64,000 nucleotides of DNA from Nanobdellota archaeon (GTDB lineage Archaea; Nanobdellota; Nanobdellia; CSSed11-243R1), in assembly GCA_021162365.1 (NCBI GenBank), contig JAGGYW010000014.1, forward strand, positions 2,518-66,517, given 5' to 3'. Positions 9,024 through 63,814 of the stretch are shown here, one piece after another. Each line of letters begins with the position of its first letter. The first letter of the stretch is position 1. The notes beneath the pieces were generated by a model, which saw only the letters and a program-made list of their open reading frames with translations, made no database searches and had not been told where the DNA came from. The position numbers and the translations under genes are program-made.

Positions 9024-9145
9024 GGGTCCGTGGTCTAGTGCATCTTTCTTTGGAAAAGAAAGCTGCACCAAAGAAAGGGGCTGGACAATGGTATGACGCC
9101 ACCCTCACGCGGTGGAGGTCCCCGGTTCGAGTCCGGGCGGACCCA
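9024..9145 (+). tRNA. tRNA-Val (anticodon CAC) with a roughly 49-nt intron in the D-loop (about 9041-9089). The anticodon loop is uninterrupted.
   Basis: Acceptor GGGTCCG/CGGACCC, anticodon stem CCACC/GGTGG, loop CTCACGC, T-arm CCCGG-TTCGAGT-CCGGG. The D-loop sequence AGTG...GGTATGAC is split by an insert forming the hairpin CTTTCTTTGG/AAAGAAAG. Confidence 0.7.
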
Positions 9146-9596: not shown

Positions 9597-9754
9597 GCGG
9601 GAGTGCCGGAGCGGTCAAACGGGCACGGCTCAAGGCACCCTTTTAGAAAAAGCGTGCACGGAAAAGGGTGAGTGACACCGTGTGGCTTAGTGCTGATGTG
9701 CCCAATGGCACTTGGCGAGCAATGCCTACGCAGGTTCAAATCCTGCCTCCCGCA
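9597..9754 (+). tRNA. tRNA-Leu (anticodon CAA), 158 nt: canonical intron after position 37 plus an additional insertion in the variable-arm region
   Basis: Acceptor GCGGGAG/CTCCCGC with discriminator A. Anticodon stem CACGG...CCGTG with loop CTCAAG|intron|A. T-arm GCAGG-TTCAAAT-CCTGC. The 47-nt variable region is about 30 nt longer than a Leu variable arm. Confidence 0.6.
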
Positions 9755-14867: not shown

Positions 14868-15025
14868 TAGCGGGGGGTGGATTTGAACCACCGACCTCCG
14901 GGTCTCCCACTTAATTCCTTTTCCGTACACGCTTTGCGCGAAGCGGAAAGGGTGTTATGAGCCCGGCGACCACTCCAGGCTAGTATGGGTTCCCCAACAA
15001 AACCTTATCGAGGATCTACCCCGCT
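14868..15025 (-). tRNA. Initiator tRNA-Met (anticodon CAT) with two introns: one in the D-arm and one at or near the canonical anticodon-loop site
   Basis: Read on the minus strand: AGCGGGG...CCCCGCT-A with an A1:U72 pair. The anticodon arm CCGGG-CTCATAA-[about 50-nt insert]-CCCGG carries the three G:C pairs typical of initiators. T-arm GGTGG-TTCAAAT-CCACC. The 5' region is about 31 nt too long between the D-stem strands. Confidence 0.6.
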
Positions 15026-19466: not shown

Positions 19467-21374
19467 TTACTTTGAAATTGCTCTCTTTATTTTTGAGAGG
19501 ATTTTTTTCTTACCTCTTGGCCACTTCAAAGCATACTCTAAAACCTGTGCAATGTTCTCAACAGGAATTATTTTTATTCCCTTCTTGTCAACAAGCACAT
19601 CCTTTTCATTTGACTTTGGAATTAAAACAACTTTAATTCCGGCTTCCTTCGCTGCTTCTATTTTGGCATTAACTCCACCTATAGGAAGAACTTCTCCACG
19701 AATTGAAAGAGAGCCGGTCATTGCAACATCCTGTCTTACAGGAATCTTTTCGAGCGCAGAAATTACAGCTGTCGCAACAGACACAGACGCAGAATCTCCC
19801 TCTACACCTTCATATGTCTGTAAAAATTGAATATGGATGTCATAATTGCTTAATGACTTACCGGAGTACTTCTTAAATATCGCGCTAACATTCGTAATTG
19901 CTTCCTTAGCGATATCTCCAAGCTTTCCTGTTGCAAGAATTTTGCCCCTTTCTCTTTCCAGAGCAGGAACCACAGATGCCTCAATAGGCAACAAAATCCC
20001 TGAACCAAGCGCGCCACCAATTACTGCAAGCCCATTTACTCTTCCAATTTCAGCACCAGATACTTTGATTATCTGATATTCTTTCTTTTCATGAATGTAC
20101 CTTTCCGCAATCTGTTGCTCCAAAGTTTCTGAAGCACCTTTTGCTTTCCTTATGTGTTCGGGCTTAACATATTTGCTACCTTCTTCTTTTGCTATATCCC
20201 CTGCAACCCTAATTAGACCACCCAAATCTCTTAGCTTTAGAGTTAGATATCCTTTCCTTCCAGCGCGCCTTCTTGCTTCCTTAATTATTTCCAAAACTGC
20301 CTCTTTAGTGAAGTGTGGTATTTTCCCATCTTTTATTACTTCCTGTGCAACAAAACGGGCTAATTTTTCCACATTCTCGGGCATGTCTTTTATTTTATCT
20401 TTCATATACACTTCATACCCACTTCCGCGAATTCTACTTCTCAGCGCAGGATGAATATGACTAACTGTTTCAAGGTTACCAGCAGCAACAAGAATGAAAT
20501 CTGTTGGAACAGGGTCTGTTTTAACCATAGCCCCTGCACTTCTTTCGCTTCTTCCAGTTATAGGATACTTCTTCTCTTGCATAGCAGTTAGAATTTCAAC
20601 CTGCATCTCTGGCTTTAGGGTTGCAATCTCGTCTATAAATAAAACACCACCATTTGCCTTGTGGATTGCTCCTGCAATAACTCTCTCATGTGGTGGTGTC
20701 CCTAATCCACCTGTCTGGAAAGGGTCATGCAAAACATCTCCAAGAAACGCCCCCTCATGCAGGCCAGTAGCATCAACAAAGGGCGCATGAGTTAAGTTAG
20801 AATTATCGATTAATAGCTTAGGTCCAATTAACTTACGCCTTTGCATTTGCAACTTGTAAATCGCATAAAAAATCATGGCGCCCAAGAATATAACTATCAA
20901 AAACATTGTCCCTGAAATTCTATCAGCTGCCTTCAATATGTCACTTGTTTCCTTGTTAACTATCCAATCCAAAACAGTGGACGCAGTGAAAATGGCAACA
21001 AAGATAAGCACAATGAATAACCAACTATTTCTATTTGACATTTGCATTAGCGCTTTTAATCTCGTCTGCTCGATTATCTTCCTGCCCATCCCCGCAGGTA
21101 CAACTTTTATCTTTGGATTATTTTCATCCTTTGGATTTGGCAAACATAAAACATCAACGAGGCGCTCCTTTGGAAGAAGCTCTGCTAGTGCCTGTCCTAT
21201 CAAACTTTTACCAGTACCTGGCTCGCCTATTAGAAGAACATGTCTCCTCTGCCTTGCAGCCTTTTTGATAACATCCACTGCATCTTCTTGTCCTATTACC
21301 TGGTCTATTAATTTATCTGGGACTTTTATATCTGCAGTTGTCTTAAAATTCAAATACTTTGAATCGCTAACCAT
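19467..21374 (-). CDS. lonB: Archaeal membrane-bound Lon protease (LonB)
   Basis: AAA+ Walker [12 protein letters not shown] with two inserted TM helices. The C-terminal Lon proteolytic domain carries the Ser-Lys dyad ([11 protein letters not shown]...NAKIEAA). Confidence 0.85.
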
Positions 21375-38417: not shown

Positions 38418-38591
38418 TGGGCCCGCCCAGATTCGAATTCCCCCACGCTTTCTTTCCGTGCACGCTTTCTTTCCGGAAAGAAAGGGTGCCTGGGGACCTC
38501 CCGCAGTCTGAACCCCCTTCTTTCCGTAAACGCTTTCTTGGAAAGAAAGGGTTTCGTCAAGCGGACGCCATAACCACTAGGCCACGGGCCC
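38418..38591 (-). tRNA. tRNA-Val (anticodon GAC), 174 nt, with two introns: canonical anticodon-loop site and T-arm (near 53/54)
   Basis: On the minus strand: GGGCCCG-TG-GCCTAGTGGTTATGGC-G-TCCGC-TTGACGA-[about 48-nt insert]-GCGGG-AGGTC-CCCAG-[about 50-nt insert]-TTCGAAT-CTGGG-CGGGCCC-A. Both inserts form CCCTTTCTTTCC/GGAAAGAAAGGG hairpins. Confidence 0.6.
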
Positions 38592-38616: not shown

Positions 38617-39129
38617 TTAAAAATCTTTGGTTAGATATTCTCTCAGCTCATCAGAAGACAATACTTTCGTAATCTCCTTCATAGCACCCACCATTTCATG
38701 GAGTGCGCCATCCATCTCAATCATAGTCACAGTGAAATAAGTCATACCAAACGGATTGCTGAGCAATGGCTCCGATGTAAGATAAAATTCACTTCCATCC
38801 CACATTATCTTCTGAGGGGATTTATCCAAGTTTAGCAAACCATATTCTAAAACGCTAAAAGGTTTTGGAAAATCAATACTAACACCAACATACTGTCGCG
38901 CTGTATCTACACCATTTAAATTCCACATCACCATTCTTTCTCTTACCTTTGTATAATCTCTCTCAGGGAATATTATTCCACATAGATCAGGAGCATCCAC
39001 TTTCTTGAGAGGAGCATAGAATACAAAGAGCTGTACCCCACCCGGAATGATATATTCCCAACTACTAAATCTATCTTTGATATATTTCGCACGATTTCTG
39101 ATTGCATCTAAATCCATATACACCACCAT
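38617..39129 (-). CDS. Hypothetical protein (171 aa)
   Basis: Start trimmed to MVVYMDLD, since the listed N-terminal extension overlaps tRNA-Ser. No family recognised. Confidence 0.4.
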   Translation of the reverse strand: MVVYMDLDAIRNRAKYIKDRFSSWEYIIPGGVQLFVFYAPLKKVDAPDLCGIIFPERDYTKVRERMVMWNLNGVDTARQYVGVSIDFPKPFSVLEYGLLNLDKSPQKIMWDGSEFYLTSEPLLSNPFGMTYFTVTMIEMDGALHEMVGAMKEITKVLSSDELREYLTKDF

Positions 39130-39133
39130 AAAG

Positions 39134-39402
39134 CGCCGGGGGTGGGACTCTCGTGCACCCACGAAAGTTTTCTCTTTCGTGCACGTTTCTCTTTTCCAAA
39201 GAGAGAAAGTGCCTTCGAACCCACGCACCCTTGCGGGAACTGGCTTTCAGCCTGCTTTTCATAAACACTTTCTTTCCCTGCAGGCTTTCTGGAAAGAAAG
39301 GCTGCTAGCAGGCCAGCGCCATAACCAGATTCCCCACACCTTCTTCCCTTCTTTTGGTAAAGCTTTTCTTCGGGGAAGAAAAGGTTTCTAGGCGACCCCG
39401 GC
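39134..39402 (-). tRNA. tRNA-Ser (anticodon GCT), about 269 nt, with three introns (D-loop, canonical 37/38, T-loop)
   Basis: On the minus strand: GCCGGGG-TC-GCCTAG-[about 60 nt]-TGGTTATGGCG-C-CTGGC-CTGCTA-[about 59 nt]-A-GCCAG-var arm TTCCCGCAAGGGTGC-GTGGG-TTCGA-[about 62 nt]-GT-CCCAC-CCCCGGC-G. The alternative of two separate genes was considered; no second T-arm or acceptor was found. Confidence 0.5.
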
Positions 39403-39480
39403 ATGATTCATAGAAACAATATTCCTCTTATATTTCTTTCTCTTAGCACAAGCTTCTTTCTTTTAAGAAGAGAAAGTGAG

Positions 39481-39751
39481 TGGGCGGGCACGCCAACCCT
39501 TGAGAAGCCACACCAGGGGCAGTCCCCAGATCTTTTCTCCACCCCGTATCCCAAGAGCATGTGCTACCCTGCTTAGTGCTGCTTCCTTCCGGACCTCGCA
39601 CGGTTCACAGAATAACACATCCCTTGGGGCGAGGCTTCTTAGATACGACCTGGGCTTGCCCAAAATGTGGCAACCCTCAGGTTGGCTTCGGCCCCCCATA
39701 AGGACGGTTTGGGGTTAACAGGCCACGCCCAACGGCCCACCTAGCCCGCCC
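39481..39751 (-). ncRNA. ffs: Signal recognition particle RNA (7S/SRP RNA)
   Basis: The minus strand reads GGGCGGGC...GCCCGCCC, a terminal helix. Internally it contains GGUCCGGAAGGAAGCAGC, the conserved SRP RNA helix-8 (domain IV) motif. GC-rich relative to the genome. Confidence 0.7.
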
Positions 39752-39787: not shown

Positions 39788-40993
39788 CTAAACACCTAAA
39801 TCTTTTGCTGTAAGTATCTTGACTCTTCTACTACTTCCTGCCGCTCCCTCAGCTACAATCGTTGATATATGTGAGCGCTCTGCATATCTTATTATGTCAG
39901 GAGTTACTTGTCCATCCATAACGATTGTATCAACCTCTGGCAAGCTCCTTATTGTATTCTTCAGCTCCTTCGTTGGAACTTTACCAAGAATGTTCATATC
40001 CGAATCTAACAAGTAAGCTCCTCTGGTACCAATTAACTCATCAAGCATTTTCTTAAACTGCTTAGCATATTCTGGGTGTACATCACTTCTTCTTTGTTGT
40101 TGTCTTTGCTGTCTCCTTTCAACTCTTTGTTGCTGAACTTGTTGTGGCTTGTGATTTCCATTTTCTCCCATCTCTTCCTTAAATTGGTCTATGGGTATCT
40201 TTGCCCTTAGGCACTTATGGATCTCTTTTTTCGTTAGTTCCTCTACTTCCTTTCCTGAAGGTGCCATAGCAACAAAATCAACATCTCCCACAGCCATAAG
40301 TTCTCTAACGATTAACTTGCCACCTCTGTCTCCATCTACAAACACAGTTGTTGTCTTTGTTTTAGTAAGCTCTGCAACAGTTGGTGGAACAGATGTTCCA
40401 TTCAATCCAATAACATTCTTAAATCCGTGCTTAAGCAAGTTAATTACATCTGCCCTTCCTTCAACAACAATTATTTCATCACTATCTTTTATATTGGGTC
40501 CTGCCGGAAGTCTTTCTTTTCCATACTCAACTAACTCCAAACTCCTAACTGTCTGCTTTAACTCCTCCATGAGCTCTGCGGAATCAGGTCCTTTATCAAT
40601 CATGTTCTTCAAAAGCTCCTTTGCTCTTTCAATTACATATTCTCTCTTTGTAACTCTAACATCCTCTATGTTTTCCACACTAAGCTTAGCATTGCAAGGA
40701 CCAATCCTTTGTATTGTCTCCAAAGCAGAAGCCACAATTGCAGTTTCTGCCATGTCCATAGAAGAAGGAATTGTTATCTCACCTTCTGCCTTTCCACCTT
40801 TATTCTCAAGTTTCACTTCTATTCTTCCAATCCTACCTGATTTCTGCAATTCTCTTAGTTCCAAGTCAGAACCTAAAAGACCCTCAGTTTGTCCAAATAT
40901 GGCACCAATCACATCTGGTTTTTCAACAGTCCCATCCACATGTATCTTCGCATGAATAATGTATTTCGCAGATACGGGTGCTATCTTACCCAT
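39788..40993 (-). CDS. dnaG: Archaeal DnaG-type primase (TOPRIM; exosome-associated)
   Basis: N-terminus MGKI.PVSAKYIIHAKI..DG.VEKPDVIGAIFGQTEGLLG is archaeal DnaG-specific. TOPRIM IIVVEGRADV...DGDRGG. Contains a Gln/Arg-rich insertion. Confidence 0.8.
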   Translation of the reverse strand: MGKIAPVSAKYIIHAKIHVDGTVEKPDVIGAIFGQTEGLLGSDLELRELQKSGRIGRIEVKLENKGGKAEGEITIPSSMDMAETAIVASALETIQRIGPCNAKLSVENIEDVRVTKREYVIERAKELLKNMIDKGPDSAELMEELKQTVRSLELVEYGKERLPAGPNIKDSDEIIVVEGRADVINLLKHGFKNVIGLNGTSVPPTVAELTKTKTTTVFVDGDRGGKLIVRELMAVGDVDFVAMAPSGKEVEELTKKEIHKCLRAKIPIDQFKEEMGENGNHKPQQVQQQRVERRQQRQQQRRSDVHPEYAKQFKKMLDELIGTRGAYLLDSDMNILGKVPTKELKNTIRSLPEVDTIVMDGQVTPDIIRYAERSHISTIVAEGAAGSSRRVKILTAKDLGV

Positions 40994-40999
40994 TCAAAT

Positions 41000-41410
41000 C
41001 GCCTCCTTTTTAGCCAACGGCGAGAAATAGCTAAATACCTAGTTGGGTCTTTCAACCCAATTCATTGGTGATTACAGTGAACATGATGATTCTCGCCATT
41101 TGGCGCTTTAATTATGATTTTGGTAAGGTGTGAATATGATGGCCCGCAACTATCCGACTATCACGTGTCAAGTCAGCACCTTCGCGGGCCAAATATATCA
41201 AGCAGGAGTATTCTACGCTCACCGCCGAAGCTCGTGCGAGCCTCTCACGTAGAGAACCGGCCTGCTTGATTACGCCTTGCCACAACTATAGACACTACAT
41301 GCTTTTATAAAGCTTTCTATTAATTACTTTACAGGGACTACAATCACCATAACGTGTGGCGCCTTTCCCTTATTACAGGTTCATTTCTAACTTTCTTTTG
41401 GCTGGGCTTT
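41000..41410. ncRNA. Unassigned GC-enriched, highly base-paired noncoding region (candidate structured RNA; identity unknown)
   Basis: No ORF of 60 aa or more. Nested long-range complements: GCCAAcGGCGAGAA/TTCTCGCCaTTGGC, GGCCCGC/GCGGGCC, ATCAAGCAGG/CCTGCTTGAT, GCTCG-TG-CGAGC. An ATGATGA C-box-like element is present. Confidence 0.25.
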
Positions 41411-41510
41411 TTTTTCTTTGATAAAACTTTCTTCCTTAGAAAGAATTTCTTTTCCATTAATACCTTTCTCTCTTAGTACAGGTTCTCTCTTTTCTAAAGA
41501 GAGAAAGTGT

Positions 41511-42008
41511 TCACATGAAGCGCTGCATGTGGAAGAACGCCTTTACTTCGTTCTCTATGGTATGCATATCAGCAGCTACCTTCTCCTTCCATGTATCTAA
41601 GGTAGAACGATAGAAGTATGTATCATAAACACCCTTCAAAAACTTCATTAACGGGTTGGTTTCCCATCTATTTTCATAATCCGTCTGTATGAAACACTTT
41701 ATTTCCAACTCAATTGTACCAGAATTCTTTGTCGTTTGAACTCCTTCAACAACAACCTGCACCTTTTGCAAACCTAAAACAAGGGTCTTTGCAAAAATCC
41801 TAAATAAAGAGTAGTCATCAACTTTTTTATAACAATTCCATTCTATTTCTATCTCATCTCCTTCCGGCTTTGTTTTGTGTTTATACTTCTGCTCTTCAAC
41901 ATCATATCCTAAACTTCTAAACAAATCATAGAGAAGCCTATAGTAATCTCCGAAGTCAAAAATCCCAGTATATTTTGCACGCGCTTTTGTTACAGCTATT
42001 TCTTCCAT
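41511..42008 (-). CDS. Hypothetical protein
   Basis: 165 aa. A terminator-like hairpin (TCTCTCTTTTCTAAAGAGAGA) lies just downstream. Confidence 0.4.
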   Translation of the reverse strand: MEEIAVTKARAKYTGIFDFGDYYRLLYDLFRSLGYDVEEQKYKHKTKPEGDEIEIEWNCYKKVDDYSLFRIFAKTLVLGLQKVQVVVEGVQTTKNSGTIELEIKCFIQTDYENRWETNPLMKFLKGVYDTYFYRSTLDTWKEKVAADMHTIENEVKAFFHMQRFM

Positions 42009-45962: not shown

Positions 45963-47237
45963 ATGCTTGACATTAAGTTATTTAGGGAGAACCCAGAGCT
46001 AATAAAAGAATCTGAGAGGAAGAGGTTCAAAGATACAAAAAATGTAGACAAAGTAATAGAATATGACACTAAATGGAGAGAAGTCATCGCAGAACTTCAG
46101 GAACTACAACATAAGCAAAACGAGGTATCAAAAGAAATTATTGAACTAAAGAAAAAAGGGGACAGTGCAGAAAAAAAGATTTCTCTCATGAAGAATATCA
46201 CAAATGAAATTGCACTCTTGGAAGACAAGGCAAGAGAACTCTTGCAAAAAAGGGATGAATATAGATATAAGGTTGGCAACATCCTCCATGAAAGTGTGCC
46301 GGTGGCAGAAACAGAAGAAGGAAATGTCACAGTTAGAACATGGGGAGAACCACGAAAGTTTGAGTTTACACCTAAATCCCATGCAGATTTAATCATAGAT
46401 TTGGGGATAGCTGATGTAGAAAAGGCCTCAAAAATTGTTGGATCGCGATTCTACTTCCTAAAGGAAAAAGGAGTTTTGCTAAATCTTGCACTAATACGAT
46501 TTGCATTTGACACCCTCATCAAAGAAGGGTTCACTCCCATGTGGACCCCATTTTTATTAAGAAAAAGTTATATGAAAGGTGCTGCCGAGCTTGGAGATTT
46601 TGACGAGCAGCTTTATGCAATCCAAGATGAAAACTGGTACTTAATTGCAACAACAGAACAGCCCCTCGCATCATATCACTCAAACGAAGTAATAGATGAA
46701 AAGGATTTACCAATCAAGTATGTCGGATACTCGACAAACTTTAGAAAAGAAGCAGGCAGCCATGGGAAGGACACAAAAGGAATATTTAGAGTCCACCAGT
46801 TTGACAAAGTCGAGCAGTATGTTATATGCAAGCCATATGACTCCTGGGACTGGCATGAAAAGATGATAAAAATCACCGAAAAAATTTTCCAAGCTCTTGA
46901 GATACCATATAGAATTGTAAATATTGCAAGTGGGGAAATGAATGACAACGGCGCTAAAAAATATGACCTAGAAGGATGGTTCCCAAGCCAAAACAAATAT
47001 CGGGAGCTGGGTTCTGCTACAAATACAACTGATTATCAGGCAAGAAAATTAAACATAAAATTTGGTAAAGTTGGTGGTAAAAAAGAATATGTTCACACAT
47101 TAAACAATACAGCAATTGCAACCGAGAGGGCAATTTGTGCTCTACTTGAAAATCACCAGCAAGAAGATGGAAGTGTAAAAATACCTAAGGCTCTCTGGGA
47201 ATACACTGGGTTCAAAGAGCTGGTGCCAAATGAATAA
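45963..47237 (+). CDS. serS: Seryl-tRNA synthetase
   Basis: N-terminal coiled-coil arm. Class II motifs, including motif 2 (FRKEAGSHGKDTKGIFRVHQF) and motif 3 (GSATNTTDYQARKL). Confidence 0.9.
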   Translation: MLDIKLFRENPELIKESERKRFKDTKNVDKVIEYDTKWREVIAELQELQHKQNEVSKEIIELKKKGDSAEKKISLMKNITNEIALLEDKARELLQKRDEYRYKVGNILHESVPVAETEEGNVTVRTWGEPRKFEFTPKSHADLIIDLGIADVEKASKIVGSRFYFLKEKGVLLNLALIRFAFDTLIKEGFTPMWTPFLLRKSYMKGAAELGDFDEQLYAIQDENWYLIATTEQPLASYHSNEVIDEKDLPIKYVGYSTNFRKEAGSHGKDTKGIFRVHQFDKVEQYVICKPYDSWDWHEKMIKITEKIFQALEIPYRIVNIASGEMNDNGAKKYDLEGWFPSQNKYRELGSATNTTDYQARKLNIKFGKVGGKKEYVHTLNNTAIATERAICALLENHQQEDGSVKIPKALWEYTGFKELVPNE

Positions 47238-62779: not shown

Positions 62780-63814
62780 TTGGGTGCCACTATGTTAAAA
62801 ATTCCTATATCTGAAATTATAAGCCGAATAAAAGAGAAGACAGGATTAGATGAGAAAGTAATTGAGAAAAAAATTGACGACAAGGTTGAAGAACTCTCAG
62901 GTCTTGTTTCTCGCGATGGGGCGGCACACATAGTCGCTAATGAGTTTGGTATTCAGCTTTTCAAGACAACTGAAACAGGATTACTTAAAATTAAAAATAT
63001 TCTGCCTGGATTGAAAACAGCATCTGTTGTTGGTAGGGTTCTAAGAATTTATCCTGTTAGAGTGTTTACGACTAAAAAGGGCAATGAAGGTAAGGTTGTT
63101 TCTTTTTTAATTGGCGATGCAACAGGAAGAATAAGAATTGTTTTTTGGGATACAAATCAGATAAAGCTAATTGAGGAAGGTAAGTTAAGCGAGGGAGATA
63201 TAATCAAAATAACTAACGCATATGTTAAAGAAGGAATAAATGGATTGGAACTTCACGCCCGTTCAGCAAGTTTAATTGAAGTTAACCCAAATATTCCAGA
63301 GGCAAAAGAAATACCCCCTCTCGATGAATTGTGGCAGCTGAGTGAAAGAGTGTCAATTAAAAACATAACTGATGAAGGAGTTTACGAAATTCGCGGCGCT
63401 GTAGTAAATATATTGGAAAATAACCCCTTCTTTGATGTTTGCCCCATCTGTAAAAAAAGAACACACGACGGTTTTTGTAGCGAGCATGGCAGAGTTGAAC
63501 CAAAGAAATCTATGTTTATCTCAACAATAGTTGATGACGGGACAGATAACATGAGAGTTGTGTTTTTCGGCAAGCAAGCAGAGCAACTAATAGGTATGTC
63601 CTCTGAAGAGGCATATAACTTATCAAAAGAGCACAACGATCCATTCTATCCAATAGAAGTGAAAAAAATTGACATACTCGGCAGGGAATTAGTAATTGAA
63701 GGTAAGGTTTCTAAGAATGATTTCTCTGGCGAGTTAGAGATGATTGCAAGAAGATTAACCACACCTAATCCAATAGTTGAGTCTAAGAAACTTATGAAAG
63801 AGTTGGAAAAATGA
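62780..63814 (+). CDS. rpa: Replication protein A (RPA) ssDNA-binding protein with OB folds and Zn ribbon
   Basis: OB-fold segments (VVGRVLRIYPVRVF...GDATGRIRIVFWD) and a zinc ribbon CPICKKRTHDGFCSEHG. Confidence 0.8.
   Translation: MGATMLKIPISEIISRIKEKTGLDEKVIEKKIDDKVEELSGLVSRDGAAHIVANEFGIQLFKTTETGLLKIKNILPGLKTASVVGRVLRIYPVRVFTTKKGNEGKVVSFLIGDATGRIRIVFWDTNQIKLIEEGKLSEGDIIKITNAYVKEGINGLELHARSASLIEVNPNIPEAKEIPPLDELWQLSERVSIKNITDEGVYEIRGAVVNILENNPFFDVCPICKKRTHDGFCSEHGRVEPKKSMFISTIVDDGTDNMRVVFFGKQAEQLIGMSSEEAYNLSKEHNDPFYPIEVKKIDILGRELVIEGKVSKNDFSGELEMIARRLTTPNPIVESKKLMKELEK

Follow-up and report, generated by a model that had tools for sequence, protein, structure and literature searches.

The DNA analyzed here is a 64,000-nt stretch of contig JAGGYW010000014.1, assigned to a Nanobdellota archaeon (hereafter the window), and our subject is an interrupted tRNA-Ser(GCU) gene on its minus strand. 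At this locus (39134-39402), four exon pieces combine into an 85-nt class II tRNA-Ser(GCU) once three inserts are removed at the corrected boundaries of Table 1. ARAGORN calls this product tRNA-Ser(gct) with a clean cloverleaf. The joined exons provide the anticodon and the identity elements of a canonical molecule, as expected of an archaeal tRNA gene with bulge-helix-bulge (BHB) introns: a 7-bp acceptor stem, A14, G15 and G18G19, the T-loop UUCGAAU, a long variable arm and G73. The CCA end is not encoded in the gene. The GC content of the exons is about 68-70%, compared to about 36% for the window, and the TATA-like AAATATAA upstream is the putative archaeal promoter of the gene. All five tRNA genes of the window are interrupted, with at least nine inserts among them, and no intact tRNA gene was found in the 64 kb.

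The unspliced 269 nt yield no tRNA with ARAGORN, either with or without its intron mode, nor with Rfam at the gathering threshold or at E<=10. A chance origin of the tRNA call on the spliced product is excluded, since neither the same four-exon geometry placed at 20,000 random window positions nor 20,000 shuffles of the mature sequence gave a single call (0/20,000 each). The identical 269 nt recur in L081, a metagenome assembly from ENA that is independent and stems from essentially the same strain (99.97% identical), which rules out an assembly artefact.

Table 1. Features of the tRNA-Ser(GCU) gene and other mapped features of the window (hBHBh', canonical splicing motif; HBh', relaxed form lacking the outer helix).
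Feature	Coordinates	Strand	Details
Exon 1	39388..39402	-	GCCGGGG UC GCCUAG: acceptor 5' strand, positions 8-9, D-stem 5' strand, A14 G15
Intron 1	39330..39387	-	58 nt; D-loop position 15/16; relaxed HBh'
Exon 2	39306..39329	-	UCUGGUUAUGGC G CUGGC CUGCUA: remainder of D-arm, anticodon stem 5' strand, loop to A37; anticodon GCU
Intron 2	39246..39305	-	60 nt; canonical position 37/38; hBHBh' geometry
Exon 3	39214..39245	-	A38, anticodon stem 3' strand, 15-nt variable arm (UUCCCGCAAGGGUGC), GUGGG T-stem 5' strand, T-loop UUCGAA
Intron 3	39148..39213	-	66 nt; T-loop position 59/60; hBHBh'
Exon 4	39134..39147	-	U60, T-stem 3' strand CCCAC, acceptor 3' strand CCCCGGC, discriminator G73
TATA-box-like AAATATAA	39428..39435	-	-33 to -26 from tRNA position 1, read from sequence
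tRNA-Val(GAC)	38418-38591	-	174 nt; introns of 49 nt at 37/38 and 52 nt at 53/54
tRNA-Val(CAC)	9024-9145	+	50-nt D-loop intron at 15/16, H = GUCU/GGAC
tRNA-Leu(CAA)	9597-9754	+	42-nt intron at 37/38 with family core AAAGCGTGCACGGAAAAG
Initiator-like tRNA-Met(CAU)	14868-15025	-	A1-U72, GGG/CCC anticodon stem; two inserts
Archaeal SRP RNA	39482-39751	-	Rfam RF01857, 148.6 bits; about 40 model positions missing in one helix
DnaG-type primase ORF	39788-40993	-	upstream of SRP RNA and tRNA-Ser
Seryl-tRNA synthetase	45963-47237	+	Seryl_tRNA_N and class II core; about 6.5 kb from tRNA-Ser

The gene was compared across five orthologs: that of the window, three from loci of reference metagenome-assembled genomes (MAGs; L002, L047 and L001) and one from a metagenome contig (L078) retrieved with exon 2 as query. 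Besides this one true ortholog, the metagenome scan gave two chance matches in GC-rich coding DNA. The orthologs are located downstream of DnaG; BLAST detected the signal recognition particle (SRP) RNA between the two genes in L047 and L001, and a GAAAGAAATATAAG motif likewise precedes the gene of L047. Upon excision of the introns, each of the five gives exactly 85 nt. Exon identity ranges from 89 to 100%, intron identity from 38 to 93% and intron length from 32 to 66 nt, while exons 1 and 2 do not differ at all among the orthologs. Changes in paired regions are balanced: the variable-arm stem covaries (CCC-GCAA-GGG versus UCC-UUCG-GGA), the T-stem GUGGG/CCCAC has become GUGAG/CUCAC in L047, compensated although its strands flank intron 3, and the one G/A change at T-loop position 57 covaries with the intron. 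In L002, intron 2 is exactly missing (CTGCTA|AGCCAG). Conserved exons, freely varying introns, compensation and the exact presence or absence of an intron are all features of a functional interrupted gene; the comparison shows a gene structure that is conserved in the relatives and, judged by these changes, under purifying selection. Two ARAGORN calls at these loci, an 'intron-less tRNA-Ser' in L002 (1589-1674) and a 'tRNA-Gly' in L001, are artefacts in which intron sequence is taken as acceptor stem.

The splice sites were compared to a BHB template comprising an outer helix h, a 4-bp helix H that pairs the last bases of the 5' exon with the intron's 3' end, two bulges of 3 nt that are each cut after the second base, and an intron helix h'. 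All three introns have this motif or its relaxed form, with hBHBh' for introns 2 and 3 and HBh' for intron 1. For intron 1, H is (G)CCU/GGG(N) with bulges AG^A and AA^U and a covarying h', in a register present in all five orthologs. Intron 2 uses the anticodon stem (5 bp) as h, followed by H = CUGC/GCUG and bulges UA^G and AA^A; its counterpart in L047 has a fully paired H (CUGC/GUAG, including one G.U). Intron 3 combines h = GUGGG/CCCAC, H = UUCG/CGAG, bulges AA^G and AG^U and h' GCAC/GUGC. Its motif is canonical in L002 and L047, with a covarying H (UUCA/UGAG in L002 versus UUCG/CGAG), and h' covaries between L001 and L078 (G-C versus A-U). The tRNA-Ser genes of L001 (5557-5812) and L078 (34-276) have four introns, at 15/16, 37/38, 53/54 and 59/60. 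The additional one at 53/54 is of the HBh' type (CGUG/CACG, bulges GG^A and AA^U) and leaves a 6-nt micro-exon, UUCGAA.

The fit of the motif was quantified over 28 junctions in 12 genes, with splice sites set solely by the requirement that the mature tRNA be restored. Pairing of helix H reaches 88%; it falls to 29-53% if the 3' site is slid 1-3 nt away and to 55+/-4% if the two strands are re-paired between introns (0/2000 permutations reach the observed value); these junctions come from related sequences and are not independent trials, and the slid control retains that relatedness. Helix h' is 75% paired versus 39-58% in the controls. Helix h pairs in 5/5 positions at every 37/38 junction and at 59/60 junctions with a contiguous T-stem strand (4/6 junctions), and in about 1/5 at 15/16 and 53/54. 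Selection is seen on the pairing at the junctions as well as on the exons. An alternative intron-intron helix for intron 2, CAGCC/GGCUG, places the 5' site in a 7-nt loop; as it is not conserved, whereas the mismatched BHB register is shared with the orthologs, the latter was preferred. A C/D-box small RNA within intron 2 was also considered and rejected by inspection (CUGA is present, a C box is not).

An earlier note on this DNA had already read the locus as a tRNA-Ser(GCU) gene with three inserts, and its parts are where it had put them. The acceptor halves GCCGGGG (39402-39396) and CCCCGGC (39141-39135) lie on the minus strand as described, the pieces named for the D-arm, anticodon arm and T-arm are all in place (GCCTAG, TGGTTATGGCG, CTGGC-CTGCTA, A-GCCAG, GTGGG-TTCGA and GTCCCAC), and its exons join into an 83-nt product called tRNA-Ser(gct) by ARAGORN. 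Its view of one gene with three introns, two of them non-canonical, agrees with orthologs that keep the exons, vary the introns and compensate stem changes across them. The folding of each boundary into a BHB, which it had proposed as a check, gave the fit far above slid or re-paired controls described above. Only its boundaries had to be partly redrawn: intron 2 (39305-39246, 60 nt, 37/38) was correct, intron 1 was off by 2 nt and intron 3 by 1 nt, and the inserts, estimated at about 59-62 nt, measure 58, 60 and 66 nt.

For intron 1, the cut ...GAATC|TGG was moved 2 nt earlier, whereby 'TC' becomes exonic and the D-loop reads AGUCUGGUUA. The reason is that the D-loop intron of the L001 tRNA-Val(GAC), 95% identical to this intron, ends at ...GGGGGGAA|TGGTTATGGCG, i.e., after ...GGGGAA, and thereby exactly splits (GCCTAG|TGGTTATGGCG) a D-arm left whole in the tRNA-Val(GAC) of the window. 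The spliced Ser D-arm equals this uninterrupted D-arm of the neighbouring gene, apart from the 2-nt UC. For intron 3, a cut at 59/60 (39213-39148) instead of 58/59 restores the canonical T-loop UUCGAAU and a proper BHB. A three-intron gene with the boundaries as first drawn (intron 1 ending ...GAAUC|UGG, intron 3 at 58/59) would still pass ARAGORN with its 83-nt product, and its D-loop (AGUGGUUA) would equal that of tRNA-Val(GAC). We nevertheless consider those boundaries very unlikely: helix H of intron 1, present in all five orthologs in the corrected register only, would be nearly lost in each of them, the homologous L001 tRNA-Val intron stops at ...GGGGAA, the two bases 'TC' are invariant across the orthologs while the three preceding intron bases vary, and at intron 3 it is the 59/60 cut that yields H = UUCG/CGAG with the T-stem as h.

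More fundamental alternatives concern the nature of the locus itself. The inserts are members of a repeated family, and look-alike copies occur between genes at 39427-39478 and 41459-41509, as might be expected if a tRNA pseudogene had been broken by repetitive hairpin insertions (resembling miniature inverted-repeat transposable elements) while a functional intron-less copy resides elsewhere. Such insertions would hardly preserve what is seen here, with exons that are 89-100% identical and changes that are compensated in five lineages with 75-85% identical DnaG, next to inserts that diverge freely. In addition, at the site of each insert a BHB can be built from exon and intron bases, with covariation, and the five window tRNA genes, all of them interrupted and including an initiator-like tRNA-Met, cannot all be dispensable. 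We thus regard a pseudogene as highly improbable. A protein-coding gene is extremely improbable. The locus is spanned in the window by a stop-free open reading frame (ORF) of 98 amino acids (39108-39404, minus strand), and a gene caller annotated this ORF in the ENA assembly (L081, 2667-2963), yet conservation tracks the tRNA exons rather than codons and the ORF overlaps the next gene. Because every one of the four orthologs has 2-3 stops in this frame, the 98-aa call over the tRNA-Ser gene in that public assembly is, by comparison of the frames, spurious.

Split tRNAs are known from another DPANN member, Nanoarchaeum equitans (PMC4033280). In genes of this type, the parts stem from separate loci with their own promoters and complementary flanks. 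Here, the four pieces follow one another colinearly and in mature order within 269 nt of a single strand, behind one TATA-like box, which argues against both a trans-spliced and a permuted tRNA. Self-splicing introns of group I or II exceed about 200 nt and have a catalytic core, whereas the inserts of 58-66 nt are far too small and match no Rfam intron family even at E<=10. The probability that any of these three arrangements applies is close to negligible. The data support a single colinear tRNA-Ser(GCU) gene with introns in the D-loop, the anticodon loop and the T-loop, two of them at non-canonical sites.

Several observations weigh against a genuine, spliced gene. Intron 1 is devoid of the outer helix h, the helices H and h' of intron 2 contain a U.U and an A.A mismatch, respectively, one unpaired A shifts h' of intron 3, and the unconstrained minimum free energy fold of the precursor (at 37 and 70 C) shows no BHBs. 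The orthologs are few and related, hence the covariation counts are small. The search for an intact tRNA-Ser(GCU) copy covers the 64-kb window. The splicing endonuclease EndA was not found in the window by tblastn, and neither EndA nor the ligase RtcB is among the 27 window ORFs scanned with Pfam; one weak EndA match (63047-63229, E=3.6) was rejected, its ORF being OB-fold/RPA-like by eye and without match to Woesearchaeota EndA queries. The only EndA seen (loci L029 and L032) consists of one plain alpha unit, and this type has been characterized as strict for canonical BHB motifs (PMC5829648). Moreover, splicing of this tRNA-Ser is something we infer from the gene sequence. With these points taken into account, the locus is very probably a genuine, spliced, three-intron tRNA-Ser(GCU) gene.

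The precursor of the tRNA-Ser described here would be transcribed from the TATA-like box about 30 nt upstream. Following what is established for tRNA splicing in archaea, EndA would cut within each bulge after the second bulge nucleotide, an RtcB-type ligase would join the exons and CCA would be added after splicing. Introns 2 and 3 would present full hBHBh' motifs to EndA, and the relaxed HBh' motif of intron 1 presumably requires an EndA of broadened specificity. A need for a relaxed-specificity endonuclease, as asserted in the earlier note, therefore appears reasonable, because intron 1 has no outer helix. In the literature, cleavage of HBh' and other relaxed motifs is ascribed to (alpha-beta)2 and epsilon2 enzymes, and a loop-bearing alpha4 EndA in DPANN is associated with increased tRNA disruption (PMC5829648). 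The EndA genes mentioned above belong to more distant Woesearchaeota (L032, 6505-7308, and L029, 7350-8054, both on the minus strand) and lie 1-2 kb downstream of dnaG. They encode a single-unit EndA (tRNA_int_endo_N followed by tRNA_int_endo) that begins with a lysine-rich extension of about 95 aa at the N-terminus. Its closest counterparts are N. equitans alpha (3IEY_A) and M. jannaschii alpha4 (1A79), and it lacks the N. equitans-type insertion. If the EndA of the present lineage is a plain alpha4 enzyme as in these other Woesearchaeota, relaxed HBh' motifs would be cleaved by a class of enzymes that is regarded as strict.

The other tRNA genes of the window were traced via intron-profile matches and GC-rich islands. 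The neighbouring tRNA-Val(GAC) gives a 73-nt tRNA after splicing that is accepted by ARAGORN; its intron at 37/38 is a canonical hBHBh' (H = UUGA/UCAG), the one at 53/54 an HBh'. Among its orthologs, L002 has no intron, L047 has introns at 37/38 and 59/60, L001 at 15/16 and 37/38, and the gene of L078, 330 nt long for a 73-nt tRNA, has three (15/16, 37/38 and 53/54). In tRNA-Leu(CAA), about 30 extra nt in the variable-arm region form a second insert of a different type, and the initiator-like tRNA-Met(CAU) contains an insert of about 30 nt in the D-arm and one of 52 nt at 37/38 (H = CUCA/UGGG); the boundaries of both 30-nt inserts are approximate, as ARAGORN accepts many alternatives. The sole tRNA reported by ARAGORN and Rfam in the window, a tRNA-Val(CAC) at 9077-9145, is a truncated misreading of the interrupted gene, with intron bases used as the 5' acceptor strand.

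Most of the introns are built alike. From a 5' arm (N)CACCC they run through a pyrimidine tract, a first purine tract, a core such as GCGUGCAC and another purine tract to the 3' arm GGGUG, and they fold as one long stem extending h', with ...AGAAAGCGUGCACGG... in the loop. A single intron profile detects those of the Ser, Val(GAC), Val(CAC), Leu and Met genes, and its matches are confined to the window and four close relatives, with none in roughly 70 more distant loci. Similarity between introns crosses genes and positions. Intron 1 of the window tRNA-Ser shares 95% identity across 59 nt with the L001 tRNA-Val(GAC) D-loop intron, but only 52% with the orthologous Ser intron of L001, and intron 2 (37/38) has 22/22 nt in common with the 59/60 intron of the L047 tRNA-Val(GAC). 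In Thermoproteales, related introns across genes and positions have been taken as intron transposition (PMC4033280), and the same pattern of similar introns in different genes and at different positions is found here. The introns would make up a single family of hairpin introns, specific to this lineage and about 50 nt long, which has spread across tRNA genes and positions. A scan of viral contigs with the intron core AAAGCGTGCACGGAAAG gave six matches, all by chance and within coding sequence.

Two copies of the intron-like pyrimidine-hairpin/purine element were observed on the minus strand outside tRNA genes. The copy at 39427-39478 separates the SRP RNA 3' end from the promoter of tRNA-Ser; the other (41459-41509) directly follows the stop codon of ORF 41511-42008, upstream of a candidate non-coding RNA. 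These intergenic elements could be terminators, spacers or mobile-element relics.

Judged by its DnaG, the host is an uncultivated DPANN archaeon, Woesearchaeota/Nanoarchaeota-like. The closest DnaG relatives (85%, 83%, 76% and 75% identity) come from uncultivated DPANN MAGs labelled Nanoarchaeota, Nanobdellati or 'archaeon', and the next tier (51-59% identity) is mostly labelled Woesearchaeota. In the window, the SRP RNA follows dnaG and directly precedes the tRNA-Ser gene. This arrangement varies among the relatives: in L002, tRNA-Ser begins within a few bases of the dnaG stop without an SRP RNA in between, and in L047 about 700 nt are inserted between SRP RNA and tRNA. Housekeeping genes of the window include those for Cdc6/Orc1, a PolD subunit, Cdc48, LonB and FttA. 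A conserved structured RNA candidate was also observed at ~41090-41285 on the minus strand, between ORF 41511-42008 and dnaG, with TTTATAAAA in front of it. Its identity across L047, L001 and L002 amounts to 68-80%, it has no Rfam match and, over the four sequences, it is folded by RNAalifold with 54 pairs, 12 of them with compensatory changes, into two hairpins that contain internal loops and are both followed by AUA. The candidate may thus represent a guide RNA of the double-hairpin H/ACA type.

Multi-intron tRNA genes are a textbook peculiarity of Thermoproteales. Archaeal tRNA genes have been described as having three introns at most (PMC4033280) or 'up to three', and Pyrobaculum calidifontis with 71 introns in 46 genes (PMC8450103), in agreement with the remark in the earlier note that three introns are rare and occur mainly in Thermoproteales. 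As far as the work of Sugahara (2008) and Fujishima (2010) is represented in PMC4033280 and PMC8450103, the genes of Pyrobaculum, Thermofilum and Caldivirga resemble the present ones in having up to three BHB introns per gene at canonical and non-canonical sites, related introns across tRNA genes and positions, and genes missed by standard tRNA finders. Thermoproteales are members of TACK, however, whereas the present case is a DPANN archaeon with a low-GC genome, its introns are of greater length (about 50-66 nt) and constitute a single hairpin family whose conserved loop contains GCGUGCAC, its local density is at least 9 inserts in 5 genes against 71 in 46 for the cited record holder, and two relatives have four introns in the same tRNA.

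Closer in taxonomy are DPANN archaea with loop-bearing EndA, such as ARMAN-2 with its epsilon2 EndA (PMC3239211) and the members of a survey including a Woesearchaeota genome (PMC5829648). That survey reports increased tRNA gene disruption, with non-canonical and multiple introns, and ascribes incomplete predicted tRNA sets to undetected disrupted genes; these papers give genome-level proportions and not the present gene or intron family. The pre-tRNA-Glu(UUC) of Methanopyrus kandleri likewise combines an HBh' D-loop intron with a canonical 37/38 intron in one precursor, and cleavage of its relaxed site is enzyme-dependent (PMC5829648). It differs in having two introns, in belonging to a euryarchaeon and in that its cleavage was shown experimentally. 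A red alga tRNA gene has introns distributed over the same three arms with BHB-like motifs, but in a eukaryote, with a TSEN enzyme and with unrelated intron sequences. Multi-intron BHB tRNA genes of the Thermoproteales type are thus already known, in contrast to their poor documentation in this lineage. In the literature searched, we found no description of the present tRNA-Ser gene, the present intron family or four-intron tRNA genes. The four-intron tRNA-Ser of the relatives exceeds the published maximum of three, and the wider pattern of density, four-intron orthologs and one mobile hairpin family could be the part that is new.

In summary, we have described a Thermoproteales-like architecture, at the published maximum of three introns, in a DPANN locus without any intact tRNA gene. 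To a specialist, the gene is unsurprising in principle, yet as an example from an under-studied lineage it is unusually clean and extreme. ARAGORN and Rfam together found one of the five window tRNA genes, and that one with a wrong 5' end; combined with the spurious 98-aa call, this indicates that annotation artefacts account for at least part of the 'missing' tRNAs in DPANN MAGs, and that inferences of completeness or auxotrophy drawn from them are unsafe. The exact gain and loss of introns and the near-identical introns at different sites make these archaea a natural system for the spread of BHB introns, and the same relatives may serve to study how far the specificity of a splicing endonuclease must stretch. 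Tentatively, and as something a little short of probable, we propose that this DPANN lineage of hydrothermal sediment possesses the most fragmented cis-encoded tRNA set yet, derived from one actively mobile family of about 50-nt hairpin introns. The fragmentation would then be caused by a family that moves between genes and positions and leaves intergenic copies behind.

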